Below, in pieces: positions 3,282 through 27,568 of a DNA stretch of 59,753 nucleotides. The position numbers and the translations under genes were made by a program. Every line of letters begins with the position of its first letter. The first letter of the stretch is position 1. The notes beneath the pieces were generated by a model, which worked only from the letters and a program-made list of their open reading frames with translations, had not been told where the DNA came from and ran no database searches. This stretch comes from a virus (lineage: Duplodnaviria > Caudoviricetes), in IMG/VR virus record IMGVR_UViG_3300016484_000665, positions 1 to 59,753 of that record. The stretch is one strand, 5' to 3'.

Positions 3282-3727
3282 CAGCAACCGATTGGGACAA
3301 GCTGTGGGCATACGCCGCGGCAGGCGGGCGATCGCCTGGTGCGACGTCCATCAAGAACGGCGCGCGGTGGATCGCCCAGAAGGAAATCAAACTGGCGCAA
3401 GCGTATGAAGCTGCTATGGATCGCGTGCGCATTGCCGAAAACAGAGCGCGCGAACTCGAGGCAGCGCTGGGCCGATTCATCGATCCGGCAAATGCGCCGG
3501 TAACAGTGCGCACGATCATCGAGATGGAGCGGCGCCTGTTGTGGCTTGCCTCCTATCAGGTGGCTCACGATTTAACGCACCCGGAACGGGTGTTCGACGT
3601 TTCAGCCTGGAACCCGATTCTGCTGGGTGACGATGCTCACCCGATTGATCGCGATCTGCTGGAGCGTTATCGGGAGGTGCTGTACGCCTACGATGCACTC
3701 AAAGAACTCGGAACCACGGGAGGCTGA
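3278..3727 (+). CDS. Hypothetical protein (coiled coil)
   Basis: 149-aa ORF with ATGA overlap. Confidence 0.65.
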   Translation: MTATDWDKLWAYAAAGGRSPGATSIKNGARWIAQKEIKLAQAYEAAMDRVRIAENRARELEAALGRFIDPANAPVTVRTIIEMERRLLWLASYQVAHDLTHPERVFDVSAWNPILLGDDAHPIDRDLLERYREVLYAYDALKELGTTGG

Positions 3728-5112: not shown

Positions 5113-5505
5113 ATGAGGGCACGGCACCCCATGGGACACCGCTCAACCTTCACAACAACCGACAGCCGGATCGAATGGCCGGCGTGGTTCATCGACAAGT
5201 ACAAACGCACCATCGGATTCCCGCACAACAAAGGCCCCATCCATCCGCTCCTGGAAAACAAAGTCTACGACGCATGGGATACGCTCGAGATCGACATCCG
5301 GAGCGCAATAGATTGGTCCAGACATCCTCGCCCATTCATTCTCGTCTACCTACACGAGTGCGGTGGCATAAGCCGATGCGAGATCTCGAAGGACAACATC
5401 CTCTGGACAGAGCCCGAGACGTGGCGACTGGAAAGCGGCCCGACACACCCGTTCTACAACTGCATCGGTTGCTCGAATGCGACCAGACTGACGGAGAAAC
5501 CATGA
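5113..5505 (+). CDS. Hypothetical phage protein
   Basis: Intact ORF within the operon; start chosen at ATG 5113. Confidence 0.6.
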   Translation: MRARHPMGHRSTFTTTDSRIEWPAWFIDKYKRTIGFPHNKGPIHPLLENKVYDAWDTLEIDIRSAIDWSRHPRPFILVYLHECGGISRCEISKDNILWTEPETWRLESGPTHPFYNCIGCSNATRLTEKP

Positions 5506-5726
5506 ACATCACCACAAACCGAATCGACAACCTCGAATCCGCCCTGAAGATTGCCATGCAGAATTGGAAGGAGTGGATGATTCAAGACACCGGCAGGCCC
5601 CCATCAGAGGGCCACTCATCGACAAAGGATCAGTGGGCTTTCTGTGAATTCGTCCTCGAGACTGAACAGCGCATGAGAGCCATTCGCGAATCCATCATGG
5701 CAGGGTCAACCGATACGACAGACTGA
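5502..5726 (+). CDS. Hypothetical protein
   Basis: ATGA overlap; GGAG RBS. Confidence 0.6.
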   Translation: MNITTNRIDNLESALKIAMQNWKEWMIQDTGRPPSEGHSSTKDQWAFCEFVLETEQRMRAIRESIMAGSTDTTD

Positions 5727-11500: not shown

Positions 11501-14500
11501 AGCATGGATGCTGTCGAATGTCTTGCCGCGCAGCTTCTTCAGGCGTTCGTAACCCTCAACCACCGTGGCCCACTTGTCGCCGACGACGGCATTGCCCCCG
11601 ACGTGCGCCCAGAGCTCATGCGCCACGAGTTTCTGCAGATCACGCAGCGACTGCACACGATCAACGACGATGTTCACATCGCCATCGATCGTCCAGGCGC
11701 GCGCCCAGCGTCCGGCGGGCTGCTGACGTGCAATCTCCTCGGGGATCGCCGATGCGTTCAGCAGATTCAGGTTCACGCCTTCCGGCATGCGCACGCCGGC
11801 CAGGAACGCGTCGAGCACGTTCCGCGGGATCGGGTTCGGCAACGCAGCCAGCGGATCCGGAGCAGAAGCAGGCAACGTGTTGGTTCGGTCGAAGAGGGAC
11901 AGTCCCTCGCCCAGCACGCGAGCGCGCATTTGATCCGTGATCCGAAGCACATGCAGCGGGAGCTTGGTTGTGTCGCCATCACCGTATTCGATCAGCGACT
12001 CCATTTCTGTTGTCTCGATGCGGGCCGACTTGTCGAGGCGCTGGGCAACCGCCTTCAGCGTGTTACGGTGCACACCGTCATACGCAGCGAAGAACGGGCT
12101 TGTTCCGATGACTGCCGGCGCAGGGGGTGTTACGACGAACTTGGACTCCTGATTGGCCAGGATCTTCGCAACTGTGTCGGTGCCGACCAATTCGCTCAAC
12201 CGCAGGTATTTGGTCGAGTTATCTACGTTGAGCGCGACCAGGTCGGCGCCATCAGGCGAGGGGACGAACGTAACCCGTCCTTGCGACCAATCTGGCGGGG
12301 CATCGTTGAGCGGCCCGCCTTCATCAGACCCAAGACGCGAGAACGAGATGTGAACACGTTCATTGGATTCGTCCCTCTCGACAATCAACTGATCGACCAC
12401 CGCGATTTTCTGGCCGTCCGCATGCCACCTCATGGCGTGCACCAGGCCACCGGTCAGTGCTACCGCGTCTTTGCCTTCAAGCACTGCTGTTCGAATCAGG
12501 TGCTTCATTGACAGTTCGACCCAGCCGTTCCCTGCGAACGGCGCGGCAGACAGCCATTGGATGTCTTCCGTCGGGGCGATTGCGTTGTTCAGCGATACTG
12601 CCCGCGCGTGCAAAGCGGCGAGATCATGCGCGATCTCCCTGATGGCAGGCGTCGCTTCGACGATGCGCGCCCACCCCCTGACGCGATCTGCCTCGTCGGT
12701 AGTTGTATAGATTTGATCGTCCGAGCCATTTGTGCGCATTTGCGCCGCAAGGAACAATGCAGGATCGCGTGCAAACGCCTGTGCGAATTCACTCGTCCTG
12801 CGGGCGACGAACGGCTCGTAAGCGTCACTAAGGCCCATCAGGCTCGACAACAGTTTGTTTCCTGTAACGCCAGGATCCATCACGCCCAGAAGGGTTGCGC
12901 GCAGATCCTTCCAACGCTCACGTATCTGCTCCTGGAGGACTTCGAGGGCCGTTTCCGCTTCTTCGCGCTGGAGTCGCAGTTTCGTCTCATCGGCGCGTGC
13001 GGACTTGCGGGCGGCGTCCTGCATCCGTTCAGTGAACGGCTTCTGTCCCGTTTTCAGGTAGTCCGAGTACGCGCGCAAAGCCCGTTGATGCTCACCGATC
13101 GCAGTGCGCCACTTGTTCACGTCCCGCGCGAAGCTGCCATCCTTGAACTGCAGCCGGATCGTCTCGCGCAGTGCCGACAACATTTGCTGCGCGTCAGCGT
13201 CCGTCGTGGCGCCGAGCTGTTTGTCGATTTCCTGCGTCCACGCCTCAGACGGGGAAAGGTCGGGTTTCTCGATCAACTGGTTCCGCAACATGCCTGGGAT
13301 GTCGTATCCATCCCACAACCTCTGAAACCGACCGAGAGGTAAGGTGGTTTGTGAAAACGCCCATGACCGCAAGGCACTTGTGACATCGACGCTCAGGGAA
13401 TTCGATGCCGTCTGCGCGTCCTTCAATCGGCGTTCCGGGTGTTGCGTCGCGTCATCCACCATTTGTCGGTACGCGAGGAGGCTGCTTCTCCAGGCCAGCG
13501 ATTGTTCTTTGATTCTCTCGTCGGCCCGAATGTTGTCGATGACATCCCCGAGCGATTCCCACATGTCTTTGTAGAAGTGATTCGGGGTGATCTCCCTCCT
13601 GGCTTCGATTTCTGAAGCCCATGCGTAGGTTGGCGGCACGTCGCGCATTTCGAGCACAGCATCTTCCAGACGTTTCACAACGCCCACGGCGTCCCACCAT
13701 TGTTGCAACGGCACCCCTGCCTCTTTCGCAAGACGTTGAGCCTTTGTGTCGCTCGCGAACTGATCGAACAGCGTCGCCATCAACGGATCGCGCGCGGCAA
13801 CCATCGCGTCTTGCGCTGTTTTGATGGCCCGCCCTGCATCGGTGTCCTCACCGGGCAGTGACAGACGCGGCTGCACCCCGCGCAAATTCTCGTCGAGCTG
13901 CATGGCTGGTGTTCTCATCACAGCATCACGCGCTCGCGCTTGCTGGTGCCAGTCGCTTTGAATTTCCTCGCTGACGAGTGCGTTCAGGCGCACGCCGCCC
14001 ACCTGTAGCGCCCGGTCGGTGGTTCGTATGTGCGACATCACATTGGATGCAACATGGTCCCAATGATTTGCGATAGATACCCGGCTCGACTCGGAATCAC
14101 CCACAGCATTCACCGTAGCGTCCGTCGGCGTACCAACCGGCAGGCGGATCAGGTGTTCCCGATAATTCATCGCTGCGGCTATTTGATGTTTCGACTCCGA
14201 AACGAGCCGCGCGGCTGGGCTGTCGGGTTGTGGCGGCATCACCGTGATCGCACCGTGACCGGCAAACTGCGTATAGATGCCCTCGTTTTCGTCTTCGTCA
14301 GCCTCGCTGTTTTCGCGGTTCGTGCGGACGATTTCTTCGGCTTCGTCCAGCGCATCGCGATCACCTTCAAGCGCGGCGGTCATCAATTCGAAGAGCTCAA
14401 CATTGCCCTCAGTGTCTGCAATGTCCAAAAGCTCCTCGAGCTCGAGCCGCGTAACGGGATCCTCATAACGTTTCGCGCCGTCAGCTCTCGACGCCGGGTC

Positions 14501-17500
14501 TTCATCGGGATCATTGAAGTCGTCCTTGAGTGTGACCACTTCCACCTTGACGCCATGCCCGCGCACGAATTCGAGCAATTGCGCACGTGTGACAGGGCGG
14601 CCCTCGAAGGCGGCCAGGTATTCTTCCAGCCCGGTGAAGGCGATCTCCTCGCGCTTCACGCCATTCGCTTTCATCAGCGCACCCAACATTTGCGCAGGGC
14701 TGCCGCGCTCCTGCTTCAGCGCCAGGGCGGCACGCTCAAGCCCGCTCCACAAACCAATCGGCGTAGACGTGATCGCGAATTGGATTCGACTATCATTCGG
14801 GTCGAACGTTCCACGATTGCCGACAGCCGACTTGATCTGCTCAGGACGCAGCGCGATGTAACTATCGCCAGAACCCTCCTCCTCGTTGCGATAAACAATG
14901 CCGTCGTAACCCTTGCTCTCGAGCAGGCGCACGAAGGCGTCTCTATCGATCTCCTTTCCGTCTTCGAACAGCGTGCGACGTACCGCCTCGTCCATGTCAG
15001 AGAAATCGACACCAGCAATGGTCATCCCGGCAACGATGTCCTTCTGTTCCCAGGTGCCCATGTCGTTCAGGCGCATCGGGTTCTGGATAGACAGGTAGAC
15101 CGGCAGGATGTTTTCGCCAATGAGCTGCTTGGATGATGTGTTCCGAAGGCGATTCTCTGCCTGCTCGAGCGTGCCGAAGTGCCAGCCGATATCGGATGTC
15201 TGCGTGAACGAATCGAACGTGTTGCGCGTGCTGTGATACACCACCAGCGGCGCGCCGTCGTTATCCGTCACCGCGCTGCGCTGGAACCAGCGCCAGAACT
15301 CTTTCACGCCGTCAGGTGTCGGATGCACCGGCCGGCCTGTCGAATCGGTGTTCGGTTGCGGATCGTACGCAGCAACGATCGAACGCACGTCAATGTCGGT
15401 AATCGCGATGTCAGCTTCATCGAACACGACATAGTTAAACGAACCCTCGCCCGCTGAACGACTGGTTCCGTCCAGGTACTTGATGCCGCGCACCCCTGAC
15501 GCGAGCAGGAACTCTGACGCGCCGCGCTGACCGCGGCCCGCCGAAAGGCCCTGATACATTTCACCAAGCGTGGCGGTGTCGATGTAATGCTGTGCAGCTT
15601 TCTTGGTCCCGAAGCCATCGATCGACAATCCGTTCAGTGTGGCCAGCCATTTCGAATCCGATGGCTCACTCTCTTTGATCACAGCAACACGGATCGCTGC
15701 GCGTACCGCTTCCGGCTGATCACCGTAGGGACGATCCCACAACATCATGTTGTCATCGTCCGGAAGGTCCGCGGTGTAGATGCGGCCCTCTGGTTGTGTC
15801 TTGGTGTACTTCTTCGCTTGCGCCAAGCCAGCCAGCCAGGCGTCCTTGTAATCCGCCTCCCAATCCGACTGCCGCACGAACTTTTCCATTCCCGCAATGT
15901 CGCTGTCGTCGCGAAGCCCTGCGTACACCTCGAGCGCGACCGTGTTCGCGTCGTCTCGACTCAGGGTGCTGCCGACACGCACGGCGTCCTGAAGTGCGCT
16001 GAAAATGTCATCCGGATGTTGGATAACACCGTCGAGGCCGAATTGAGCCTGACGCGCCGAAAGGCTTTTTCGGTAGTGCGCCGCAATGTCACGCAGCGAA
16101 GCGAAATACAGGCCCCATCCAAACGCCTGCCCGCCCTCGCCAGTACCAATGCGGTCCGTCCTGAACTCGGAGAACGTGTAGGGACTGCCGTGGTACCCCG
16201 TAACAGGCGCGCGCACGGTGACGTCGTCGGGGAAATATCCCCACTCAGCGATGCTGTCTCCGTTGGTGTAGATGTCCTTGGCGCGGACAGTCTTGCTGAC
16301 CACCCGATAGTTGCCCTTGCCGAATTCGGATTCGCCATGCTCCACAGCGTAGGCACGGCTGATCGACACCCAATCACCCGGATTGATCTTCAGGCGCGCG
16401 GCTGGTTCGCCCGGCTCAGAACGCAGACGTTCTGCTTCCTGCTTCGTAGCGCGGTACCACTCATCCTGCCTTTCCGGATCCACGTTATCCGGATACAGGC
16501 CCCTGCTCATGAACAGCGCCAGTTGCCGCTCCAGGATTGCAGCACGCTCCGCGTTGCTTTTGGTGTGTGGCACTGCGCGGTAGATCTTGACCGGCCTGTT
16601 CGGTCGCCCTTTCAACGACAAAGCAATGTCTGCCGACTCCTGTTCAGGGACGTTGTGGCGTGAAATGTAGTGATGCCAAAGGCCGGTGTAGAAGTCGTCC
16701 GGATAGATGCCGTTGTGCGTCAGATTGTGTGCAGGCGCGCCCTCGTCTCCAGTCGCCCTATGCCCGCCGCGGTAGTCGTACTCCCCTTCCCGAAAATCAT
16801 TCCTGCCCGAGCGCTTGATTCGGAGGTAATTCCTCCAGGCGTTCCGCGTGAATTCGAGCGCGGGCAGGTCCGCAAACTCCGGACTGGTCGCCGGCGCAAG
16901 ACGCGGCATGCGATCCTTGTCGCGCAGATACGTGGCAGAGGAGCCATTACTCAGCATGGATTCAATGCGCCCGGTGGCGGATGTCCACACGACATCGATT
17001 GCGACCTTGGCGGCGATGAATCGCGTTGCCACAGAAGCGTTGCTGGCATGCACGAAGGCCGCAGCCGCGTTCGTAGCGATCGCGTAGCGCGTCATCATCG
17101 CCCGCAGCGCTTTCCGGCTGATCTGCGTGGGATCGAAATCGAAGGGCACCACCGCCAATACCTGGTGTTTCGAATCCACCATCAGCGCTGTTGCGTAAAT
17201 GCCGTTTTCCTGTATCTCGCGAGACTTCCTGTACAGCGTCATCACGTCCATCTTGGACCGGATGGCATCCACAGCTACATTCGATGCCAACCTGCCGACA
17301 TCAGAGAACGTCGGCCGCTCCGTCTCCGGCCTGCGGGCCGCGTATTGGTACAGATCAGCTTTGCCCGTTTCATCAATGAAGCCGTAGCGATCCGTGTCGA
17401 TGACAACATGGCCCCTGAACTGAAGCAGTGGCTTACCGTTGAGGCCGACTGTTTCAAACAGAGCCAAAGCGATCCCGGCGGTGGTACTGATATCGGCTTC

Positions 17501-20500
17501 GGACGGTGTTGGATCCCCGCTTGGATGGTTGTGCATCAGCCAGGCTTGGGTCGCTCCGGCACCGGAGGCGATAGACGCGATGTCCATAAGCGGGGCAGCA
17601 ATTTCATTCACGGTCACGAGCATCGCCGCACTTCCCGGGCTCCGTGTGGTTGCGGCGTACTGCAGCAGAATTCGCCCGTTGTCATCGGTGAATATCCAGC
17701 GCGCCGTTTCAAAGCGTGGATCGCGATACACCTGAGCAATCGTTGCGAGGTCGGTTGCAGATCTGATGGTCTGGCCGACCAACATGGTGCGCTGCCTCTG
17801 CGCAAGGTCGCGCGCCATTGCACGGCCGGCATATGAACGGCTGCGCCACAGTTCGCGGATTGCGTCATCAGCCCTGTCCTGCGCGCGCTCGAGCGCTGCT
17901 GGCGGGCCTTGCCGCGTTTCGTGCTGCTCCGGCATATCAATCAACAGCTCGAGCTGTTGGGGGTTCGGGTACTTGCCACGGCGCGCAAACACTTCGGCGA
18001 GCCCATCGGATAGTTCCGCGTCATACCGGATGCCGGGAGCCGGATCGTAGGCGGGGCGGTCCTCGTTCAGATTTGTGTCACGGTTCACCCGCGCGATGAA
18101 CAGGTTGCGCTTCTCCTCTGTCGGGAACGCAAAGCCCTTCTTCACCCCTGCGCTGCGGTTCGCGTAGCGCGACCAGTAGCCGCCGAGATCCTTGGCCATC
18201 TCCGACACTTGCTTGTATTGATCGTCTGGGAGATCACGACTCAGTGTGGCCAACCATTGATCTTCACCGGTCCGGGTATGCTTCTGGTTGTGCGGTTGCG
18301 CCAGTCCGGCCGGCTCAGGCGTTTCCGCAGGCGCATCGGGCGCCGCCTGGCGGGCGGGAACGTCCGTTGGAATTGCTGTCAGGTCATTGTTGTCGATGAT
18401 CGACGGCGCATCTTCCATGCCAACCGGTTCGGCCAGAATGTTGCGCCTGGGCACACCCATGTCCTGGATTACATCGAACAGCGCATTGATGTCTTCGATG
18501 TACGTCAGGTCACGGTTCGATTGCTGCGTGTCCGGTGACGGGAAGTATTTCGGAGGCAGATAGTCGATCACCAGCACCCGCGTCATCACGCCGGTGCCAG
18601 CTCTGCCAAACGTCACCGAAGGCAGCAGCATGTTCAGGCGCGTGTGCAGATCCTTCGCCATGTCATCTTCGTACAGCCACTTTTCCAGCCGCTTGTCGGC
18701 CATCTGGCCTGCCGGATAGATCGCGACCAGCCGGCCGCCCGGGTACAGGTGGCGTTCCGCTGCCTTGCGCATGTGCGGGAGCGCATCGGATCCGCCCAGG
18801 CCAAAGGGCGGGTTCATGACGATGGCGTGAAACTTGTTCATGGGCGGCAGGTCCATGAAATCCATCACGCGCACGTTGCCCTGCGGTGCACGGATCTGAA
18901 CCTTGTCCGCGAGTTCGTCTTCCAGCTCGATGTAGGTGTTCGCCGTGGATCGCGGGAACCAGCGTGCAATCGCGCCGTGCCCTGCGGACGGCTCGAGCGC
19001 CTTTTCGCCGGCGGCGAGCTCTGCCCACTCGACCATTTTCAGACCAAGCGGCTCCGGTGTCGGGAAGTAGTCGCGGCCGATATCGTTCTGCCTGCCCTTC
19101 CGATTCGACCAGTACGCAGTCTTCGCCATGTCCCAGGCGTTGATCGCTACCGCCTGATCGCGCTGCTTTCCGCCCGTGCCCTGATCGGGGTTCGGGTCGA
19201 TGCCGGGTTCCGCGTTGACATATGCGTCAACAATCGAATCCAGCAATGACCGGGCCTGATCGCCCATCGCCATGTTCTCAACCGTGCTCGAGCGCTGGGC
19301 GATGGTCTGCGCGAAGGCCTTGTCCTCATACGAAAGGCCTGTCCGCAACATTTCGTAGATGGCGTTTGATTTCACGCCCACACGATAGATGCGGCCCTCA
19401 GTCTGAATCAGGTCAATGGGCTCAGTGGGCAGGCCGACTTGGATCACGACGCGCTGATGTTTGCCGGTGACGTCATGCAGGCTGACACCTTCACGCCCCG
19501 CGGTGATCTGGGCGAGGAACACCGATACCGGACCGCCATCCGTGTTGAAGTTGCGAATCGCCGCAAGTCTCTTCGCTTTCGACACTTTCCCGTTGTAGAT
19601 CGCAACGGTTGTCCCGAAGGCCTCCTGGAATGCTTCGACGGGGTTGCGTATCCCCGTCAGCGGCAAGTTGTACAGATCCGGGCGCAGGCCGCGCAGACCC
19701 TCAATCTCCGCACGTAGCGCATTCGGACCGCCCTGTACGCGCTGCCCGAGTGCGGTGATCAGTCCACCGTCCGGATCGATCCAGCGTTCGCTTTCGTCGA
19801 AATATCCGGGCTTGATGCGGAATGGGTGTGACGGCTCGCGGGTGATGTACCGGTGAAACGCCACCACCTTGCGGCCCATTGCCACGTGCAACTTCGCACG
19901 GCGCACGGATTCGTCCGCATTCAGTCCCTCGATCAACGTCATGAGGAACAGGTAATCCCATTTCTTCCGGAAAAACTCCTTGGCCTCATTCGACAGACCG
20001 TTATCGATCCGATCCAGACGGCGCGTCTCCGGGTCACGCTCGTAACCACGGATCCACCACATACCCGCATCGATCGCTTCGCCCAGGCTGTTTTCGTACC
20101 GGTGAAACACACGGGAGTAATCGAACGGCACATCGAGCATGCGGCTGATGATGGCGTTCTGCGCCTTCAGGTGTTCATGCCAGGCGCGCTCCATCAGGCT
20201 CCGATCAACACCAGACTCCGGCTGCGTCAGCTTGCCGGTACGCATCCGGTAACCCAAATGGGTCATCAGATATTTCTGGTACTCGTTGCCGGCGTTGTAG
20301 GCGCCGGACTGACCCTCGCTGCGCTTCCCGGGCTTGCCGAACGCCAATACCGTCTGATCGAGCAGTTGCAGGTTCTTGTGGTGCGCCAACGGTGTCGCGC
20401 TCAGGAACACCACATGCGGGCGCCGCTCCTCGTTGTAGATGCGGTCGCCCTCAGCCCGTTCCGCGTCCGCAAGCGCCCGCTGTTCGCGCGTCAGCTCATC

Positions 20501-23500
20501 GGGCAATGAGCGCTTCGGGTTCTTCTCCTGCCACTCCTGTGCACGCTTGAGCCAGTCCTCATAGTTCTGCCTGAATGGCGAGCGCATGCGCGCCAGCGCA
20601 ACGGTGTGTTCCGGATGGTGGCTCATCGCGTAGTGCGTGAGGATCTTTGCGGTGTAATCGCCCGCCTCATTGCGCATGAGGTAATGCGCCTCGTCGTAGA
20701 TCAGCGCATCAAATCGACGGTCGGCCAGTGTCGGATTGGCCGAATACGCCGCATAGGTGGTAATCGCCACTTCCCGTGTGCCGGGCGTTTTCGTATCGGG
20801 CAGGACTTCCGCGTCCAGGTCGAAGAAATTCACCGCCTCGCGCTGGAAGACGGACGCCATTGTCTGCGAGTTCACCACGATCAGTGCGTTGCGCGCTTCG
20901 CCACGCTGGAACAACCGCTTCAGGATCCCGAGAGACGAGAAGGTCTTTCCGGTACCGGTGCCGTTGGTGATCAGAACGCCGCGCAGATCCGGCTGGCTTT
21001 GCCACCAGCTTTCAGCCCGGGCGACATCATCCACCTGGCCGGGCAGGAGTGCGGGCACCGATGCGGCAATGTTCTGCGCATCGGCCGCTATCGGGGCTAC
21101 ATTGCGGTCAGCGCGCTTTTGTCGCTCGCGGGGGGTGAGTCCATCGTCGAGGGTATCGGCAGTTCCGGTTGTTCCGTCGCGTCCTGCTCCACCCTCGTCA
21201 GGAGATTCAGCAGCATCCGTTCTTCGTCCGGACTCGGGCGATAGTCCCTCTGCGCCAACATCATCGCGTGTTCCGGTGAGTCGATCAGTGGTAGTGCCGT
21301 CATCAGGCCCGAATGACCCGTCTGGGCGATATATGTCTGTATCGCTTCCCGTTCCACCATCAGCGGGGCGAGTATCTGGTACGCCACTGCCACCTTCGGT
21401 GTTGCTCCCTGCTCCTCGAGGGCCTGCGCCTGGCGATCCAGAACCGCCGACATTTGGTCGGCCGGCAGGCGAAACAGTGCCGCCGCCCACGGGGTTCGCA
21501 GTGTCTGTGTCTGGGCGATCTTGTTCCAGATTTCCGGTGGCACCTGAAGCATTGCGCTCCTCCTGGTATCGGGCTTCATGATCCGCGTTGTTGCCGATCA
21601 GCAGCGCAAGGCGTTCCTGATACGGCTTTGCAGACGGATGCTGCGCAGACGAATTCTCATACCAGCGCCGGGCACTCGCAAATTCATCGTAGTTCGCGTG
21701 GCGCATGAACCACGGCGTCTGATCCGCAGACGAGTACGCCTTCTGAAAAGCATCGACCAGCGGTTCCTGCTCGCTCCACGGCGCATTGATCAGGCCGGCA
21801 GCCTTCATCCGCTCATTGAAGGCGGCATTTGATCGCGCGGTAGCAGAGCCCGTGCCGGTGGCCCATTGCTCCCAGCCGAGCGTTGCGGCATCGGTGGTGG
21901 TGAAGGTCTGAGTTACAGGATTGGCACCTGCGTCAATTTCAGCCGTCAGGCCAGCATCCGGCGCGCGACCCGCCCGGATGTTGGCCGCCACTTTTTCAAT
22001 GACGTCCGGCCCGTCCATTTCCTCGACCAGATCCGACATTGTTGGATCCAGCCTGACGTTGCTGTAGGCGCCGGGCACGTAGGGCGCGATCCACTGCCCG
22101 ACCTCAGCAACCATCCGCTTCACAACCTGGGTCAGCTTTCGCGCGCCCGCTTCCACGTGGAATGCCACGCGCTCAAACACGAGTGTTGCAAGCTCCGGGT
22201 CGAAGCCGACGTTCGCCTGCGAGCCCTTTTGGCGCAGCTTCTCGAGTGCGGCATCAGCCCGCGCCTTCGGGAATCGGGTGTTCGTTGCACCCCATTCAGC
22301 GGATGACGCTGTGCTGTGCAGAGCGTCATCCGTTCCCTGCAGACGGTCTTCCGGTGGCGCTGTTTGTGTGGTAGGCGCTGGTGCGGGCGCAGGCTGGCCA
22401 CTGGACGTGAGCAGATCGCCCTGTTCAGCTTCCGGTGCCGTCTGCGATTCCGGACGCTGGCGTAGCAGATCTACCGGCGTAACCTCGAGCTCATTGCCGA
22501 ACAGCCCGCCCTGCGCGGTCGATTGGTTCCGTGCATTGCGTATGTAGTTCTGCAGGTACTCGATTACGCGCGGAGCGCCCAGCGCGCGACCAAGCAGACC
22601 GACCTTGGATTCGGTGTACAGATTCCGCGTGATCGCTCGCGCACCATCCGACATCCCGCCGAACATATCGCCCTGTGCCAACAGGTCATTGATGTTCAGA
22701 CCTTCCCGGCGAGCCTTGGCTACCGTGTCGATCGCCTCGAGCAGCGCATCGGTGACGTCGAATTGCGCAGGGATATCGCCCTGCGCAATGTCCTGCCGCA
22801 GCAGCGCCCAGGTCGGGGCCATGTCCGTCAGCACGCTCGACAGCGCGCGCGTCTCGTCATCCGTAGACTCGGTGAGCGTCTTGATGCGCTCATTGCTGCG
22901 CTCCGTGCGACCGTACGCCACCTCAAGCAGCGCATTGCGGATACGCAGCACACCACCGACAGACAGTGCACCATCGTCCTGCATGTACTCGGAGCGCAGC
23001 GGTGCCGGTACCTTCGCCACGTACGCGCGCACGAAATCCTGATTCGGCGTTGCCGATATCGCCGCGCCGGGCGCATACAGGGACAGCACTTCGGGTGTCA
23101 GGATCTTGGCGCCGCGCTTTGCCTCTTCGGACGCGCTCATGCGCTTCGTTGCATCGACGTTCGCTTCGTCGGTGAACGCAACCAGATCCTCATCGCTCAT
23201 GTCATCCACGCGACGACGGATCAGCACCGGTGCGGTCATGCCCTCGATGTTGTAACCCTGTTCACGCAGGAATTGGCGGTACTGCTCTGCTCGCTCCGGA
23301 TGGTCCGCATAGATGCGGCGCAACGACATCACGCGGCCGTTGCCGCTTTCGACGAACAGCCGATCCTTTCCAACAATCGGCGCACCGCGGTCCGCTTCGG
23401 CGCTGGCGCCCAACCGTGCCGGATCGAAGTTCTTGATGATTTCGCGTATCTGATCGTCACTGTCAGCGCGGCTGCGGTCACGCGGCTGTAACCGCGCAGG

Positions 23501-25720
23501 GAATTGCGGGTTATCGCTGGTGATCAGCTCATCAAGCTCGCGCAACTCGAACTGAACCCCGATCTTCCGGCCAGTGTGAGTGCTTACTACGTCCGCAGCC
23601 TGCGTCGGAGCTGTTACCGGAGAAACAGGTGTAACGGTTTCAGGGGTTTCAGGGGTTTCAGGGGTAACGGTTCTACCCGTTTCCGCGCCAGGCTCCTCCG
23701 GTTGTCTCGTGGTCGGCGTAAGCGGTGGCGTAGGCGCTGCAGTTGCTTCACCACGAATGCGATCAACCAGCGGTGCGGGGGTTCCTTTCGGTGGCGTGGT
23801 GCTGGGTGTGGCGCCCAGCGTCGGGATCTCCTGGCCCGGCTTGAGCAGGGGAATCGCGGTCACATCTTCGTTGCGACCCGCCGCCTCAAGCGAATCGAAC
23901 ACCAGCACCTGACCTTCAAGGCCTGTGCGCAGGTTCCGGTACTTCTCACCGGTACCCTTCCGCACGTAGCCGATGGTGATGTGCGGCTTGTAATCCGGGT
24001 AGGTCTGCTCATTCGGAAGCGAATCGCGAATCCGTTCATGCAGGTTCTGCAGTTCCTGCGACTGCAGGCGCTGCACGATGACGTCAGAATCCTCGCCCTC
24101 GAATATCTCGATGCCACCCACCGTGGCTTGCACCTCACCCGCATCAGCCAGCACGCCGCGTAGCTTGCGCGCCAGCTCCGGGCTGGATTCTTCTTCGCCG
24201 AGCTCGAGCCCGTAGAGAATCGTCACATGCGGTCGGTCTTCCAGGCCGCCCTCTGCCAGATCATTCGGATCGATCTGTGATGCGCCGGCCTGCTTGATCA
24301 GCCGGGACTGTTCCTCGTTCAGCGCGAATTGTGTGGATCCGCGCTCATGCGTCGGGGTGCCCTCCGGCTGCGTGGCCTCAATGGCCCGATCAACCATTTC
24401 ATCGAGCTTCGCTTGATCGAGTATCCGCTTGACGGCCGACTCACCGTCAGCAGGGGGCGGCATGTTGCCTGAATCATCCGGCGTAGCGCCGGCGCCGTAG
24501 ACAAAGTCCCGCGCGATGCGCAGCGCCTCTTCATCGGACTCCGACTGCAGGATTTTCCGTGTCGCCTGTTCTGCCTCATCGGGCAGCGGATCCGCTTCGC
24601 CCCTCTCGCCCATGCTGGCCAGCGCACCGAACGGCGCTGCGGCTGCACCCAAGCCCGCGGCTTCGCCGACACCTTCCCAGCGGTCTTTCGCTGTGTTGAT
24701 GGCCTGTTCTGCGCGGTTCGCAGCGTACTGTGCGCTGCCCTCTTCGGTGCCCTCCTGCAAACCCTCGCCAATGAGGCCGCGTACGCCGCGCGATACGATG
24801 CCGCCCGGCATCTTCACACCAGTGAACGCCTTTTCCAGCAGGTTTGCGCCGGGGAACATATTGGTCAGAAGGCTGACGTAGCTGGACAGCTTGGCCGCAT
24901 CGCGAGACAGATCGACCAGCACGCTTTCTCGGGCATCATCGAAGGACGCGCCCTGTTCCATCAGCTTCTTCACGTCCGGGTTGGCCGCCCACATTTCCAG
25001 CGGCAGGCCCCGGAGCTGGTCAATCGCCTGCTGGCCACCATCCGCGCCCTGCAGGATCGCGTTGACGCCCCATGCGGTGCCGGTACCGACTGTGCCCGCA
25101 ACGGCCTCCGTCGCGCCCAGACCGCGGGCAAGCTGCGCGCCTTTGCTCGCTGCGCCCAGACCGGGAACCAGCATCGGCACCTGCTCTGCGAGGAACGACG
25201 CCAGCAGTCGAGGTGACTTGTAGGTTTCCGACAGTGCCGCCCATGCGGCGGCCCATTCGCCGCCTTCTGCGCGCGCGCGCGCTACCGCATCAGCACGCCC
25301 CTGCTCGAGCGCTTTGAGCGCCTTGCTCTTGCGGTCGCCCCAATACTGGATGCCTCGTTCGCCCTGACGGGTCAGCCAGTTGTCCAGGTGACCGGAAGTC
25401 AGCCCGTATGCGGTGCCACCGAGTTGCAGCAGCGAGTTGCTGCCCTGCCCGAATCCTGCGACGAGATCACCGCCAATCTCGCTCGCCTCGTCCAGTGACG
25501 ACGGCAGAGCATCGAGGGCGGCTGCTATCGGGCGCAGTTGTGGCAGGACCTCGCCACCTCGCGCCAGGTTACGGCGCAGACGCTCTACCAGAGGGGAGGG
25601 TGTGTCCTCTTCGGCGGGTGCCGGCGCCGGCGTGGCAGGCGGCGATGCACCTACCGGGACGTCACCCGGAAACAGCGGTTGACCAACGGGGGTGTCGCCC
25701 GGGAACAGCGGCTGTGCCAC
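8594..25720 (-). CDS. Giant 5708-aa polyvalent (DarB/DdrB-like) internal virion protein
   Basis: Last gene of the ejection module; motifs HVT/HIT (2H), VESGNGR (DdrB-ParB), GTGTGKT/DEAH/SAT/QTEGRIYR (SF2), EPSAGHG/NPPF (N6A MTase), HNHPSG (JAB), ART-like blocks, HELWAH, LPD38-like C-terminus. Confidence 0.9.
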   Translation of the reverse strand: MAQPLFPGDTPVGQPLFPGDVPVGASPPATPAPAPAEEDTPSPLVERLRRNLARGGEVLPQLRPIAAALDALPSSLDEASEIGGDLVAGFGQGSNSLLQLGGTAYGLTSGHLDNWLTRQGERGIQYWGDRKSKALKALEQGRADAVARARAEGGEWAAAWAALSETYKSPRLLASFLAEQVPMLVPGLGAASKGAQLARGLGATEAVAGTVGTGTAWGVNAILQGADGGQQAIDQLRGLPLEMWAANPDVKKLMEQGASFDDARESVLVDLSRDAAKLSSYVSLLTNMFPGANLLEKAFTGVKMPGGIVSRGVRGLIGEGLQEGTEEGSAQYAANRAEQAINTAKDRWEGVGEAAGLGAAAAPFGALASMGERGEADPLPDEAEQATRKILQSESDEEALRIARDFVYGAGATPDDSGNMPPPADGESAVKRILDQAKLDEMVDRAIEATQPEGTPTHERGSTQFALNEEQSRLIKQAGASQIDPNDLAEGGLEDRPHVTILYGLELGEEESSPELARKLRGVLADAGEVQATVGGIEIFEGEDSDVIVQRLQSQELQNLHERIRDSLPNEQTYPDYKPHITIGYVRKGTGEKYRNLRTGLEGQVLVFDSLEAAGRNEDVTAIPLLKPGQEIPTLGATPSTTPPKGTPAPLVDRIRGEATAAPTPPLTPTTRQPEEPGAETGRTVTPETPETPETVTPVSPVTAPTQAADVVSTHTGRKIGVQFELRELDELITSDNPQFPARLQPRDRSRADSDDQIREIIKNFDPARLGASAEADRGAPIVGKDRLFVESGNGRVMSLRRIYADHPERAEQYRQFLREQGYNIEGMTAPVLIRRRVDDMSDEDLVAFTDEANVDATKRMSASEEAKRGAKILTPEVLSLYAPGAAISATPNQDFVRAYVAKVPAPLRSEYMQDDGALSVGGVLRIRNALLEVAYGRTERSNERIKTLTESTDDETRALSSVLTDMAPTWALLRQDIAQGDIPAQFDVTDALLEAIDTVAKARREGLNINDLLAQGDMFGGMSDGARAITRNLYTESKVGLLGRALGAPRVIEYLQNYIRNARNQSTAQGGLFGNELEVTPVDLLRQRPESQTAPEAEQGDLLTSSGQPAPAPAPTTQTAPPEDRLQGTDDALHSTASSAEWGATNTRFPKARADAALEKLRQKGSQANVGFDPELATLVFERVAFHVEAGARKLTQVVKRMVAEVGQWIAPYVPGAYSNVRLDPTMSDLVEEMDGPDVIEKVAANIRAGRAPDAGLTAEIDAGANPVTQTFTTTDAATLGWEQWATGTGSATARSNAAFNERMKAAGLINAPWSEQEPLVDAFQKAYSSADQTPWFMRHANYDEFASARRWYENSSAQHPSAKPYQERLALLIGNNADHEARYQEERNASGATGNLEQDRPDTDTANPVGGGTVSPAGRPNVGGSGSPGAGPRGAGSNTEGGSGVPDTRPADGGTGSDTDIYRPDGSFGPDDGTTTDRLTGTRDDVGAEGLSPESGRRTDAAESPDEGGAGRDGTTGTADTLDDGLTPRERQKRADRNVAPIAADAQNIAASVPALLPGQVDDVARAESWWQSQPDLRGVLITNGTGTGKTFSSLGILKRLFQRGEARNALIVVNSQTMASVFQREAVNFFDLDAEVLPDTKTPGTREVAITTYAAYSANPTLADRRFDALIYDEAHYLMRNEAGDYTAKILTHYAMSHHPEHTVALARMRSPFRQNYEDWLKRAQEWQEKNPKRSLPDELTREQRALADAERAEGDRIYNEERRPHVVFLSATPLAHHKNLQLLDQTVLAFGKPGKRSEGQSGAYNAGNEYQKYLMTHLGYRMRTGKLTQPESGVDRSLMERAWHEHLKAQNAIISRMLDVPFDYSRVFHRYENSLGEAIDAGMWWIRGYERDPETRRLDRIDNGLSNEAKEFFRKKWDYLFLMTLIEGLNADESVRRAKLHVAMGRKVVAFHRYITREPSHPFRIKPGYFDESERWIDPDGGLITALGQRVQGGPNALRAEIEGLRGLRPDLYNLPLTGIRNPVEAFQEAFGTTVAIYNGKVSKAKRLAAIRNFNTDGGPVSVFLAQITAGREGVSLHDVTGKHQRVVIQVGLPTEPIDLIQTEGRIYRVGVKSNAIYEMLRTGLSYEDKAFAQTIAQRSSTVENMAMGDQARSLLDSIVDAYVNAEPGIDPNPDQGTGGKQRDQAVAINAWDMAKTAYWSNRKGRQNDIGRDYFPTPEPLGLKMVEWAELAAGEKALEPSAGHGAIARWFPRSTANTYIELEDELADKVQIRAPQGNVRVMDFMDLPPMNKFHAIVMNPPFGLGGSDALPHMRKAAERHLYPGGRLVAIYPAGQMADKRLEKWLYEDDMAKDLHTRLNMLLPSVTFGRAGTGVMTRVLVIDYLPPKYFPSPDTQQSNRDLTYIEDINALFDVIQDMGVPRRNILAEPVGMEDAPSIIDNNDLTAIPTDVPARQAAPDAPAETPEPAGLAQPHNQKHTRTGEDQWLATLSRDLPDDQYKQVSEMAKDLGGYWSRYANRSAGVKKGFAFPTEEKRNLFIARVNRDTNLNEDRPAYDPAPGIRYDAELSDGLAEVFARRGKYPNPQQLELLIDMPEQHETRQGPPAALERAQDRADDAIRELWRSRSYAGRAMARDLAQRQRTMLVGQTIRSATDLATIAQVYRDPRFETARWIFTDDNGRILLQYAATTRSPGSAAMLVTVNEIAAPLMDIASIASGAGATQAWLMHNHPSGDPTPSEADISTTAGIALALFETVGLNGKPLLQFRGHVVIDTDRYGFIDETGKADLYQYAARRPETERPTFSDVGRLASNVAVDAIRSKMDVMTLYRKSREIQENGIYATALMVDSKHQVLAVVPFDFDPTQISRKALRAMMTRYAIATNAAAAFVHASNASVATRFIAAKVAIDVVWTSATGRIESMLSNGSSATYLRDKDRMPRLAPATSPEFADLPALEFTRNAWRNYLRIKRSGRNDFREGEYDYRGGHRATGDEGAPAHNLTHNGIYPDDFYTGLWHHYISRHNVPEQESADIALSLKGRPNRPVKIYRAVPHTKSNAERAAILERQLALFMSRGLYPDNVDPERQDEWYRATKQEAERLRSEPGEPAARLKINPGDWVSISRAYAVEHGESEFGKGNYRVVSKTVRAKDIYTNGDSIAEWGYFPDDVTVRAPVTGYHGSPYTFSEFRTDRIGTGEGGQAFGWGLYFASLRDIAAHYRKSLSARQAQFGLDGVIQHPDDIFSALQDAVRVGSTLSRDDANTVALEVYAGLRDDSDIAGMEKFVRQSDWEADYKDAWLAGLAQAKKYTKTQPEGRIYTADLPDDDNMMLWDRPYGDQPEAVRAAIRVAVIKESEPSDSKWLATLNGLSIDGFGTKKAAQHYIDTATLGEMYQGLSAGRGQRGASEFLLASGVRGIKYLDGTSRSAGEGSFNYVVFDEADIAITDIDVRSIVAAYDPQPNTDSTGRPVHPTPDGVKEFWRWFQRSAVTDNDGAPLVVYHSTRNTFDSFTQTSDIGWHFGTLEQAENRLRNTSSKQLIGENILPVYLSIQNPMRLNDMGTWEQKDIVAGMTIAGVDFSDMDEAVRRTLFEDGKEIDRDAFVRLLESKGYDGIVYRNEEEGSGDSYIALRPEQIKSAVGNRGTFDPNDSRIQFAITSTPIGLWSGLERAALALKQERGSPAQMLGALMKANGVKREEIAFTGLEEYLAAFEGRPVTRAQLLEFVRGHGVKVEVVTLKDDFNDPDEDPASRADGAKRYEDPVTRLELEELLDIADTEGNVELFELMTAALEGDRDALDEAEEIVRTNRENSEADEDENEGIYTQFAGHGAITVMPPQPDSPAARLVSESKHQIAAAMNYREHLIRLPVGTPTDATVNAVGDSESSRVSIANHWDHVASNVMSHIRTTDRALQVGGVRLNALVSEEIQSDWHQQARARDAVMRTPAMQLDENLRGVQPRLSLPGEDTDAGRAIKTAQDAMVAARDPLMATLFDQFASDTKAQRLAKEAGVPLQQWWDAVGVVKRLEDAVLEMRDVPPTYAWASEIEARREITPNHFYKDMWESLGDVIDNIRADERIKEQSLAWRSSLLAYRQMVDDATQHPERRLKDAQTASNSLSVDVTSALRSWAFSQTTLPLGRFQRLWDGYDIPGMLRNQLIEKPDLSPSEAWTQEIDKQLGATTDADAQQMLSALRETIRLQFKDGSFARDVNKWRTAIGEHQRALRAYSDYLKTGQKPFTERMQDAARKSARADETKLRLQREEAETALEVLQEQIRERWKDLRATLLGVMDPGVTGNKLLSSLMGLSDAYEPFVARRTSEFAQAFARDPALFLAAQMRTNGSDDQIYTTTDEADRVRGWARIVEATPAIREIAHDLAALHARAVSLNNAIAPTEDIQWLSAAPFAGNGWVELSMKHLIRTAVLEGKDAVALTGGLVHAMRWHADGQKIAVVDQLIVERDESNERVHISFSRLGSDEGGPLNDAPPDWSQGRVTFVPSPDGADLVALNVDNSTKYLRLSELVGTDTVAKILANQESKFVVTPPAPAVIGTSPFFAAYDGVHRNTLKAVAQRLDKSARIETTEMESLIEYGDGDTTKLPLHVLRITDQMRARVLGEGLSLFDRTNTLPASAPDPLAALPNPIPRNVLDAFLAGVRMPEGVNLNLLNASAIPEEIARQQPAGRWARAWTIDGDVNIVVDRVQSLRDLQKLVAHELWAHVGGNAVVGDKWATVVEGYERLKKLRGKTFDSIHAEVMFRYGRLSPVEEVKEFIAVMAERRVDEGPLARWWRQVQEFVVRGLRAMGMTRPMGLADLNIILSAGRAYIDGTSFYDRRRGAQASTLSFSLDDEFEPHERPLVQQIGMGFQGGLRGLRARMYNQWRLFQGRRWDYTRQAVLDQYNSFRKVLNDPRSWKLANLAAGTLSALEAALTRGRLYLENDVLKVHTNMPSLQDILEPLGRDVNRFLAWVAAHRAERLKAEGRENLFEDHHIAAFQLFNQPGTPGTVTYRPDRPEIFATALRELEQWQASIVQVGVDTGLINDEEAELWRTQGWYVPFYRVLEDEQDDTGPRISLNELARQTAYRRLRGGVDQLDDLFVNFLGNANHIIAASMRNHAARAALATATQVRNQSGQPIATRIHPPYGGVPRGAIWVRNNGRPEWYQLDHTDPESNLVLESLLSINWQGMNGIVGATLRKAKRMLTYGVTADPNFKIANGVRDTLAAIAITGLSPMFWRNIASGWRATRDDGTDKADMLASGAIFAESGYIHGADPDEMRFWIERNHPNYGQVRATANPFMDAARALGHGLMLGWEAYQDFGARLENINRAAEWVRLQEAGASDLDAAFAARDFLDFSRMGGNETVRWLTQSVPFLNARLQGLDKLGRSAVDPAQRARFHTTWAIYSALSVLLYLLIKDDDEYKRLEQWKRDANHYFRLWPGSPLFKIPRPFEVGAIAMLFERATEQWVDASATPRLFRERLTHALLDTFAMNPTPAALRPLLEINGDLNWFTGRPIEGDELKEVRAPLAYQPWTGTTVKGASAAIYGATGGLVDPSPVQIEHMVRGYFGWLGTTAIAAADAIIDGFTGAPEKPAGHFSDSVIARRFMETTPQRNTRAQTEFYDMLNAVQEAAFSAARKRKLEGRAASKAYVAEQGDEEAIRLLPRMRTTARRLAARRARIDRITNDPNLSAEEKQQQIDALLIKQDETAARAVERIPMDVRESLI
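21097..21552 (-). CDS. Overprinted nested gene (151 aa) inside the giant gene
   Basis: AGGAGG (21564-21559), 6-nt spacer, ATG 21552; mostly G/C-ending codons; helical, globular-looking sequence. Confidence 0.7.
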   Translation of the reverse strand: MLQVPPEIWNKIAQTQTLRTPWAAALFRLPADQMSAVLDRQAQALEEQGATPKVAVAYQILAPLMVEREAIQTYIAQTGHSGLMTALPLIDSPEHAMMLAQRDYRPSPDEERMLLNLLTRVEQDATEQPELPIPSTMDSPPASDKSALTAM

Positions 25721-25736
25721 TCAATCACTCCTGTCG

Positions 25737-26861
25737 TTACCGACCACCGGCCATCCGGTAGACCTTGTTGTTCATGATGAAGTAATCGCCCGGCCTCATC
25801 ATTTCGAAATCGGCATCGCCACTCGGACGCCACGGATTTCGGACGCTTCCATCCCGCGCTGCGCGATCGATATCGCCCGGCACACTTTCGGACACAACGA
25901 CAGCGCCAGGCTTCATTGCCGGTCGCGCCTCGTCAGGATCCAGCGCGGGGTCGCCCCTGCCGCCACCGCCGCCACCGCCACCGCCGCCACCGCCGCCATT
26001 GTAGGTGTAGGTCAGACCATCAAGCGGGCTCACGTATACGTCGCCCTTTTTCATGCCAAGGCTTGCTGCCTCATCAGCACTCTTCGGCATGAACGGATTG
26101 CCAGACGTGCCAAGCGCCGCATTCGAATCTCGGGGCACAGTTGTCGTGCTCGAGCGTGCGGGCTCTGCACCTGGTGACGACTTCACAATCTCACCGTTCA
26201 CGATACGGAACGTATCGACCAGGTCAGATCCTTCGAAGACCGCGGTACTCATCGGCACGCCATCTTCATCCCGAATGGTGTGTGCGGTGATTTTCTTCTC
26301 GTACTTGTTCAGCAGCCGCCACGCATCCATTGCCGCCTCACGCTGATCTGCCGGCGCGTTGACGTCGCTGATGATCGTGTTGAGCTTCCGCATTTCGTCG
26401 GCGGCCTGCGAATTCTTGATTGCCTCCTGCAGCGAAATGCCCTTCGACATGTTGTCGAGCAGATTGCCGAGCTTCTGCATTTTCAGCGTGCTCTGCGCGA
26501 TATCGAGTTGCGCCTTACGCGCATCGTCCTCGGATTCGAATGAGAGCTTCTGCAGGTCGAGTTGTGCCTTACGGTAAGACGCTGTGTTCGCCTGTTCCGT
26601 CTCCTGCAGTTTCATGCGGCGATCTTCGAGCGTGGCCTGGAAGTCGCGGTTCGCCTTGCCTTCTTGCTGCTGGAATTCCTGACTCTGCGTCTGTAGGCGT
26701 TCCTGGAACGACTGCTGCTGCGTCTGCAATTGCTGCTGCATTTCCGCCAGTCGCGTATCGCGCTGTGCCTGCAGACGGGACTGCACGTGCATCGCGACGA
26801 ACGGCTGCGCAGACTCCGTGGTTTTCTTCAGTGCATAGCCGAGCTTCTTGACCAGACTCAT
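25737..26861 (-). CDS. Probable ejection/internal virion protein
   Basis: Q-rich coiled coil, poly-Gly tract, position next to the giant gene. Confidence 0.6.
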   Translation of the reverse strand: MSLVKKLGYALKKTTESAQPFVAMHVQSRLQAQRDTRLAEMQQQLQTQQQSFQERLQTQSQEFQQQEGKANRDFQATLEDRRMKLQETEQANTASYRKAQLDLQKLSFESEDDARKAQLDIAQSTLKMQKLGNLLDNMSKGISLQEAIKNSQAADEMRKLNTIISDVNAPADQREAAMDAWRLLNKYEKKITAHTIRDEDGVPMSTAVFEGSDLVDTFRIVNGEIVKSSPGAEPARSSTTTVPRDSNAALGTSGNPFMPKSADEAASLGMKKGDVYVSPLDGLTYTYNGGGGGGGGGGGGGRGDPALDPDEARPAMKPGAVVVSESVPGDIDRAARDGSVRNPWRPSGDADFEMMRPGDYFIMNNKVYRMAGGR

Positions 26862-27568
26862 GCTGCCTGCCCTCCTGATTGCGGCATCAGGTACCCCTCC
26901 TGTTCACCGCGGATCCGTTCGCCGACGTCCTCTGGCACATATCCGAGAACATCCTCCATGTCTTCCGGGGTCAGGCCCTCGTAATCGCCAACCAGCAGGA
27001 TGGCCGCCTGCCCGGCTTGGCCACCCAGCGGCCCCGACATGTCGGCCAATCCTGTCTTGTGAACGACGTCGATGACGTGTTCGGCAATCTCGCTGGCAAC
27101 CACCGCCCACAGTTCGGGCGGGATCTTGCCGGGTATCTGCTCATCGATCGTCGAATAAATCATGAGCGTGACAGTGGCCACTGCGCCGGCCGGGTCATCA
27201 CGTTCGGAGCCCAAAACATCGATCAGGTGCTTGGACATTTCCTGCGTCGCCGGCTGCTCCGGATCGCCCTGAAGCATCGACAAGGCGATCGCCATGATGG
27301 CGTCGTACTTCTTCTTCTCTTCGGGTGTCAGTTCCTCGAGGTCGGTATCTGGATCGAAAGGCTTCTCCGGCCACGGATCGCCTTCCTCCTCGCCCTCACC
27401 GCCCGCCATCGCGGGTTGTGGTGCAGCCTGCATGCCGCCCTGTGCAGCCGGCTGCGGAGCCTGAGCGGGTTGTGTCGAGTTCGCGCGGGATGCCTTCGCG
27501 GCTTCCTGAGCCCTCGCCGCCTGTGCGACATCCGAATCCATCAACGTCTCAATGAGTGACTTGCCCAC
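26858..27568 (-). CDS. Acidic protein in the internal-virion module
   Basis: 236 aa, tightly coupled to its neighbours. Confidence 0.6.
   Translation of the reverse strand: MGKSLIETLMDSDVAQAARAQEAAKASRANSTQPAQAPQPAAQGGMQAAPQPAMAGGEGEEEGDPWPEKPFDPDTDLEELTPEEKKKYDAIMAIALSMLQGDPEQPATQEMSKHLIDVLGSERDDPAGAVATVTLMIYSTIDEQIPGKIPPELWAVVASEIAEHVIDVVHKTGLADMSGPLGGQAGQAAILLVGDYEGLTPEDMEDVLGYVPEDVGERIRGEQEGYLMPQSGGQAA

Follow-up and report, generated by a model that had tools for sequence, protein, structure and literature searches.

A small gene probably nested out of frame within a giant DarB-like polyvalent gene of a Caudoviricetes virus

Can a stretch of DNA that reads as a featureless linker within a giant phage gene be at the same time a second gene, written in another frame of the same strand? 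The question is raised by the IMG/VR virus record IMGVR_UViG_3300016484_000665 (Duplodnaviria; Caudoviricetes), whose 59,753 bases (about 89% complete, as estimated by CheckV) are referred to here as the window. Its minus strand bears a giant polyvalent DarB-like gene of 5,708 codons and, wholly inside it, an open reading frame (ORF) of 151 codons in the +1 frame, opened by an ATG with a Shine-Dalgarno (SD) sequence. The codon usage, the start signals, the pattern of substitutions and the predicted fold of its product indicate that this nested ORF is very probably a real gene, translated separately from its host. The elements on which the argument turns are the following:

8594..25720, minus strand: giant polyvalent DarB-like gene, 5,708 amino acids (ORF, Pfam and GenBank homologues)
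21098..21553, minus strand: G/D/T/P/R-rich low-complexity linker in the frame of the giant gene, residues about 1390-1541 (translation, codon usage)
21564..21559, minus strand: SD sequence AGGAGG of the nested gene, 6 nt before the ATG (read directly)
21558..21553, minus strand: spacer AGCGCA of the nested gene (read directly)
21552..21550, minus strand: nested start codon ATG (read directly)
21097..21552, minus strand: putative nested gene, 151 codons plus TAG, +1 frame of the giant gene (homologues, purifying selection, codon usage)
21099..21097, minus strand: nested stop codon TAG (read directly)

A preliminary description of the window had pointed to this AGGAGG, its 6-nt spacer, the ATG at 21552 and the 151-codon +1 ORF, and our reading of the sequence agrees with it in each respect. 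The frame follows from the coordinates (25720-21552 = 4168, which is 1 modulo 3). Another in-frame ATG lies further upstream, at 21579, and would give a product of 160 amino acids; it has no SD sequence and is unused by the homologues. A scan for sigma-70 promoters and terminators over 20900..22400 returned no sites, and a look-up of RNA runs gave none that contains this stretch. Over 20900..21800, contigs of other metagenomes differ from the window at a single position, 21115 (G to A on the plus strand, in run X6), a change that by codon reading is synonymous in the nested frame and turns Arg into Cys in the giant frame.

The arrangement recurs widely. When the nested product was compared by tblastn with 50,697 phage records, 8 records were retrieved, corresponding to 6 phages with hosts in Pseudomonas, Klebsiella, Serratia, Vibrio (two) and Ruegeria; the matches (34-41% identity, E 3e-20 to 4e-16) all fall within a giant coding sequence (CDS), labelled in these homologues as "DarB-like antirestriction" or "PLxRFG protein", and two further tblastn queries returned the same 8 records. 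The start of the match minus the start of the CDS is 1 modulo 3 in 6/6 phages. Cultivable members of the group include Pseudomonas phage Skulduggery, grown on P. fluorescens SBW25, and Serratia phage Parlo. Beneath the match, all 8 records annotate the giant CDS alone, as expected from the earlier supposition that gene callers overlook the nested gene. A search with a 7-sequence alignment yielded 54 IMG/VR loci and 5 loci in bacterial genomes or metagenome-assembled genomes (MAGs), namely Polaromonas, Rhodoferax, a Thermodesulfobacteriota MAG, Maridesulfovibrio and Chryseolinea, and another query provided 3 more IMG/VR loci. The set thus comprises 68 loci, 6 from GenBank, 57 from IMG/VR and 5 on contigs of bacterial genomes, and covers phages and prophages whose bacteria belong to several phyla.

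In each of the 68 loci the homologue is found in the +1 frame at the equivalent place, immediately ahead of the helicase. As in the window, the entire nested ORF lies inside a longer same-strand ORF of the frame one base behind it in 67 of them, the exception being due to a contig end, and within the fetched loci that frame stays open over a median of 2,110 codons, vs 17.5 for the third frame. An ATG stands at the start of the match in 66/68 loci; in the other two the match begins inside the protein. The tblastn check that had been proposed, for an SD sequence, an ATG and an open +1 frame in homologous giant genes, accordingly finds them kept at the same place. Some queries were less productive: the window's protein used as a single sequence found no match among viral contigs, nor did it in a word-indexed search of proteins of 83-265 amino acids, in which a profile gave 25 matches at near lengths; the absence of profile matches among longer proteins in the word-indexed search is weak evidence. 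One of the loci is peculiar in its host gene: on the Thermodesulfobacteriota MAG contig (L062, 2821..10421) the giant gene is broken over different frames into many ORFs (823, 134, 125, 328, 113, 200, 216 and 126 amino acids), and the nested ORF is nevertheless intact, with AGGAGG upstream; this locus is either a decaying prophage or an error-rich assembly.

Signals and selection were quantified on 50 unique sequences (the window, 6 from GenBank and 43 from IMG/VR), after dropping identical duplicates, the truncated L052, and L049 and L060, whose match start lacks an ATG; L061-L065 and L070-L072 were not included. ATG is the first codon in 50/50 sequences, and a strict SD core (GGAG, GAGG or AGGA) is found 3-12 nt upstream of the start in 41/50, vs 8.2% of the remaining ATGs of the same loci and 9.5% of the remaining ones in the +1 frame. 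A stop codon of the +1 frame abuts the ATG in 11/50 sequences and lies within 8 codons of it in 24/50. The encoded proteins range from 120 to 151 amino acids. The distance from their stop codon to a conserved N-terminal motif of the helicase, further downstream, is 12-29 codons in 30 of the 32 loci that match the motif pattern, among the 50 scanned. As far as can be judged from the sequences, these start and stop signals fit independent initiation and termination, and not a frameshift product.

A frameshift product is the alternative that the start region brings to mind, and the preliminary description had entertained it as the tail of a frameshifted short isoform. A +1 shift near 21552 would append the nested domain to the N-terminal 1,390 residues of the giant protein, with AGGAGG acting as the stimulator. 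Internal SD-like sequences do stimulate +1 frameshifting in prfB, and two of the related proteins described below, P0142 and P0088, hold an upstream module and a nested-type domain in one frame. On the other hand, an ATG occupies the first conserved codon in every one of the 50 sequences, the SD sequence is spaced from it as for initiation, and no shift-prone sequence is conserved in the 20 nt before the start; moreover, given the +1 stops abutting or close to the ATG, the shift would have to take place exactly on that codon. The frameshifted isoform is thus disfavoured, and we consider it very improbable.

The codon usage of the interval tells the two frames apart. GC at codon positions 1/2/3 is 0.66/0.47/0.71 over the whole giant gene, and within the nested interval the giant frame shows 0.70-0.77/0.63-0.78/0.41-0.51; the gene-like pattern therefore belongs to the +1 frame. 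Codon-usage log-likelihood scores, trained on the rest of the gene and computed over the whole gene in 100-codon windows with 10-codon steps, lead to the same result: frame 0 is beaten by another frame solely in the windows starting at 21670..21370, in which its score drops as low as -0.24 and that of the +1 frame reaches up to 0.26, the gene-wide frame-0 mean being 0.248 (standard deviation 0.096). Both measures agree with the earlier remark that the nested codons are gene-like and that the giant frame is atypical there. Long same-strand ORFs in alternative frames also occur at 24319..24771 (minus strand) and in the region of 19226 (minus strand); at 150-187 codons and without gene-like codon usage, they look like chance ORFs of a G+C-rich gene.

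Substitutions point in the same direction. Averaged over pairs, the nucleotide difference is 0.476/0.383/0.528 at positions 1/2/3 of the nested codons, so that the least variable position is the third position of the giant frame, the opposite of what would be expected if the giant frame were the only one coding. Amino acid identity is higher in the nested than in the giant frame for 92% of the 12 closest pairs and for every pair of the other divergence bins (1,225 pairs overall); in no bin does the identity of the giant frame exceed that of the third, non-coding frame, to which it is equal or slightly inferior. Among 53 close pairs (<25% nucleotide difference; 2,579 substitutions), 48.7% of the observed changes, vs 23.3% of the possible ones, alter the giant protein and leave the nested one unchanged; the converse kind, which alters the nested protein alone, accounts for 16.4% vs 26.0%. 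The crude ratio of nonsynonymous to synonymous rates (dN/dS) from these tables is about 0.32 for the nested frame, on the side of 1 that had been asked of a real gene; the giant frame has a ratio of about 1.7. The divergence of the nested protein keeps pace with that of the adjacent helicase (mean identity 0.41 vs 0.46, r = 0.84; 48 loci, 1,128 pairs). The giant frame is nonetheless free of stop codons in 50/50 sequences, whereas random synonymous recoding of the nested protein leaves it so in 3.7% of trials on average (median 1.6%). On these comparisons, the nested frame is under purifying selection, and the giant frame is actively kept open while its sequence is otherwise unconstrained.

The product has the features of a folded protein. 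Its AlphaFold2 model, built with a 44-sequence alignment, reaches a mean predicted local distance difference test (pLDDT) of 85.3 and a predicted template modelling score of 0.75, with 106 of the 151 residues at pLDDT >=90, and is divided as follows:

21175..21552, minus strand: conserved folded part, residues 1-126, with eight helices over 6-126 (AlphaFold2, alignments)
21100..21174, minus strand: C-terminal tail, residues 127-151, window-specific and predicted to be disordered (pLDDT 44-57 over the last 25 residues)

The homologues finish 10-30 residues sooner than the window's protein. A profile search of 1.84 billion representative proteins gave 572 clusters at E<=1e-3, 460 at E<=1e-10 and 99 at E<=1e-30; among the 150 clusters listed, most are of 115-140 amino acids and match from residue 1. 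The short members that were looked up have no protein name and come mainly from contigs of 0.5-4 kb, where the small gene is apparently called because the giant ORF is cut off; gene callers would then report it only where the giant ORF is truncated. One homologue with an NCBI name is "hypothetical protein FAES_3293" of Fibrella aestuarina, and a search of 301 genomes in the order of one Bacteroidota holder found that holder alone.

Could the +1 frame be open and conserved without being translated, simply because base composition, or constraints acting on the giant protein or on the DNA or RNA, happen to keep it so? G+C-rich genes do hold long chance ORFs in alternative frames, and this giant gene contains others of 151-187 codons. 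Such constraints are hard to reconcile with a giant frame that is here no better conserved than a non-coding one, with substitutions that favour nested-synonymous sites, with gene-like codon usage confined to the nested frame, with a conserved ATG and SD sequence, and with a product that folds confidently and whose domain is found in ordinary in-frame proteins. We regard this explanation as very improbable.

A third possibility is that ribosomes starting at the nested ATG enter the giant frame by a -1 slip where the nested ORF ends, giving a long isoform fused to the helicase. The nested stop does always lie just before the helicase core; a slippery heptamer, however, is present in the last 40 nested codons of 1/50 sequences, and the C-terminal ends of the nested proteins differ in length and sequence, so that we hold such a fusion to be extremely improbable. 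Finally, that two compensating indels, real or of assembly, threw an in-frame domain out of frame is hardly credible: nothing beyond the frame switch itself suggests it, the same arrangement is found in 67/68 other loci (six isolate genomes included), and contigs of four other metagenome runs from three other studies match the start and stop regions with no indels, which excludes an assembly error as its source.

Several points weigh against separate translation as the reading of this locus. The other same-strand alternative-frame open stretches of the giant gene, of 164, 187 and 151 codons, rival the nested ORF in size, and ORF length by itself is not more than chance would give; it is codon usage, start signals and conservation that single the nested ORF out. 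The strict SD core is absent at 9/50 starts. The sequences are related, so the pairs compared are not independent, although the direction of the result is uniform; and the alignment of distant pairs followed the nested protein and so favours its frame, a bias from which the close gapless pairs are free. With these points taken into account, separate translation of the nested gene remains very probable, and the earlier proposal of a real nested gene, with the giant linker as its by-product, is supported by the conserved SD sequence, ATG and open frame together with the selection acting on the nested frame.

What the small protein does must be sought mainly in its surroundings. Pfam returned no families at E<=1 for the nested domain (LPD families included), NCBIfam and PADLOC gave none, the best match in PHROGs had E 0.14 and that of a sequence-profile search of the PDB E 0.47, and Foldseek against PDB and BFVD found nothing at E<=0.001, distant kinship being still possible in all these cases; a wide fold search with VIA-align reached a best Z of 4.5, and the ESM Atlas search was blank. 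Any functional proposal has to contend with this lack of a family, fold or defence-system match in the searches made. By the same searches, the nested product represents a protein family that is new and has no name, and its setting is a new one for a gene arrangement already known.

The host protein offers more to work with. Its modules in order, numbered in residues of the giant protein, are:

residues 495-589, minus strand: 2H/Acb1-like domain (Pfam)
residues 717-837, minus strand: ddrB-ParB domain (Pfam)
residues about 1148-1261, 21938..22279, minus strand: "AGAR" helical module (15-sequence alignment A3; AlphaFold2)
residues 1576-1685, 20666..20995, minus strand: ResIII, start of the superfamily 2 (SF2) helicase core, downstream of the nested stop (Pfam)
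residues 2030-2115, minus strand: Helicase_C (Pfam)
residues 2279-2348, minus strand: methylase (methyltransferase) domain (Pfam)
residues 2703-2753, minus strand: RadC/JAB (Pfam)
residues about 3486-3640, minus strand: ART-PolyVal (Pfam)
residues about 5400-5570, minus strand: LPD38 (Pfam)

The nested ORF ends at about residue 1541 of the giant protein and the ResIII match begins 35 residues on, at 1576, in line with the earlier observation that the ORF stops just before the SF2 helicase. In the Bcep22-like phage JC1 the DarB-like protein is described, in the portion of the article available, as a virion protein encoded by 22% of the genome (PMC9144972). The 2H phosphoesterase domain (about 23954..24238, minus strand) also matches the Pfam family Acb1 (anti-CBASS) with E 2.6e-9, and given this match the injected giant protein may additionally degrade cyclic-nucleotide defence signals.

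The module of the host protein that may be linked with the nested one is named AGAR here and has the consensus ...SGIDPE...HIE.GAR.F..YA.AM..DLG...RPYLKSWY.... It is modelled as six helices with a pLDDT of 89.8, is also present in the giant frame of many related loci (e.g., L036:2679-2999), and was without match in a Pfam scan and in a fold search. In the proteins P0056 and P0125 a nested-type domain is followed, in frame, by an AGAR module, which matches residues about 1186-1258 of the window's giant frame (E 1e-7); compared by tblastn with the related loci, the C-terminal parts of the two proteins gave 42 and 40 giant-frame matches, with E down to 2e-24. The order is the reverse in P0142 and P0088, where an AGAR-like module precedes the nested-type domain in frame and the front part matches the giant frame directly upstream of the nested ATG in L070-L072. 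Other longer in-frame relatives bear other C-terminal regions, and the nested-type domain thus recurs in varied multidomain architectures, as polyvalent modules do. Among the longer relatives, P0152 (566 amino acids) carries two copies of the nested-type domain and a C-terminal DUF6794 (Pfam E 2e-12).

Because the two modules are recurrently fused in both orders, a functional and often physical link between them can be proposed (the "Rosetta stone" argument). The stretch of alignment A3 that holds the AGAR module also ends right at the nested ATG in 8/14 IMG/VR rows. This partner role is weakened by the fact that AGAR does not adjoin the nested gene in every locus, about 130 residues lying between them in the window. 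A complex prediction of AGAR (A3) with the nested protein (A2, residues 1-128) scored 0.00, which is evidence neither way. The in-frame fusions are the one functional lead that emerged, beside the roles of chaperone, adaptor or inhibitor guessed at earlier. Tentatively, then, the sequences suggest that the nested protein might be a non-covalent partner of the giant protein.

Free-standing relatives provide a further hint. P0143 (557 amino acids; L069:10001-11674), from a Bacillota MAG, has an N-terminal nested-type domain and an internal duplicated acidic region, and its gene lies in an integrase / D5-type primase / ERCC4 island, directly upstream of the type I restriction-modification operon hsdR, hsdS, hsdM. 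DarB counters type I restriction, according to the part of PMC12810830 available. The context of P0143 beside hsd genes is suggestive of a tie with helicase-methylase systems, as a single case and the sole free-standing relative readable in context. Contexts were also sought for P0113, which is not in metagenome contigs, for P0056, which is not in viral contigs, and for P0061, which had no plasmid match; the nearest viral relatives of P0061 are nested as well.

Taken together, these data would be explained as follows. Ribosomes would start at the nested SD sequence and ATG (21552) on the mRNA of the giant gene and stop at 21097, producing a separate protein of about 125 folded, all-alpha-helical residues plus a 25-residue tail peculiar to this phage. 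The giant frame over the same DNA would be a disordered spacer between the N-terminal modules and the helicase-methylase core. The small protein would act with the giant protein, most likely by binding the AGAR module just upstream, and its role would be in assembling, packaging or controlling the DarB-like antirestriction module.

The relative age of both frames can also be addressed. The small gene is probably the older reading, and the giant ORF would have extended across it: the codon usage of the former is normal, its predicted fold is confident and it has relatives in frame where no overlap exists, and the segment of the latter looks like the newcomer, with its atypical codon usage, low complexity and lack of sequence conservation. 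The opposite order, in which the nested frame would be a young de novo overprint, was considered and is disfavoured by a codon usage at the gene average, a pLDDT of 85 and the non-overlapping in-frame relatives. A point against the older small gene is that it lies free between two separate genes in 0/68 loci. In two IMG/VR relatives, L019 and L051, a stop interrupts the giant frame about 240 and 300 codons ahead of the nested ATG, respectively (residues 91 and 28 of the 330 aligned upstream), and the downstream gene still spans the entire nested gene; the giant gene can thus be split near the nested one.

A broader scenario may be termed "fusion across a gene": two neighbouring anti-defence genes would have been joined by reading through an intact small gene, whose protein would be an AGAR-docking, non-covalent subunit of DarB-type antirestriction machines, its domain being tied more generally to helicase-methylase systems. 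We put this forward as a doubtful proposal. If it were true, the DNA of the small gene would have become a linker while translation from its own start continued.

The significance of the nested gene lies first in its host. DarB-like polyvalent giants are the main injected anti-defence weapons of many podophages and occupy a fifth of the genome, and a conserved extra protein encoded inside the giant gene would alter the parts list of the DarB-like system. In the available text of the JC1 study, accessory factors had not been identified in Bcep22-like phages (PMC9144972), and the nested protein is a concrete candidate for such missing factors; the tblastn searches of phage records gave no match to it in Bcep22-like phages. 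It also provides a clear example of a gene overlooked by standard callers, as six isolate genomes annotate the giant CDS alone. Besides, if a segment of a long gene is the overprinted newcomer, this suggests one route by which very long multidomain genes grow.

Among the closest known systems is that of phage P1, in which the Dar accessory proteins Ulx, DdrA and Hdf are needed with DarB, according to the available parts of PMC12810830 and PMC9144972. As with these proteins, the nested one is small and encoded next to a DarB helicase-methylase with which it would act, ulx lying directly beside darB in P1; unlike it, ulx, ddrA and hdf are separate genes. Alignment of the A2 profile with each of Ulx, DdrA and Hdf by hhalign gave a probability <1% (E 0.6-0.9). 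P1 (L066, NC_005856) also has an overlapping gene of its own, iddB, of unknown function, at 26577..26975 within ddrB (24542..27529), on the opposite strand.

The nested-type domain likewise resembles the polyvalent modules (Iyer et al. 2017, PMC5512222, as far as the available text goes) in that it recurs fused in varied order in proteins of mobile elements, and differs from them in being encoded out of frame and not as part of the giant polypeptide. The words "overlapping" and "frameshift" have no occurrences in the main text of that article, in the form available. The preliminary description knew of no account of such a gene, and none was found in the literature on polyvalent, PLxRFG and DarB-like proteins or on nested genes, most subscription journals being outside the search; one paper containing both "polyvalent protein" and "overlapping gene" uses the terms for unrelated matters.

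In its architecture, the locus is comparable to the Rz/Rz1 spanins of lambdoid phages, where a small gene with its own start is wholly embedded, on the same strand and in the +1 frame, in a larger one. The two proteins of Rz/Rz1 are both made and work together. The differences are considerable: the host is here a polyvalent virion protein of 5,708 codons and not a lysis gene of 150 codons; its frame is an unconstrained linker and not a functional segment, with the probable order of age reversed; and the nested protein is a predicted, soluble-looking helical domain and not a lipoprotein. The gene order SRRzRz1 of lysis genes is mentioned, and equivalents of Rz/Rz1 are cited, in the available part of PMC9144972.

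Finally, as in the overprinted genes A/B/K and D/E of phiX174 (reviewed in PMC8227390, available in part), two frames of one stretch are kept open by selection. In classic overprinting it is the short frame that is young, often disordered and atypically coded, whereas in this locus it is the segment of the long gene that looks young.

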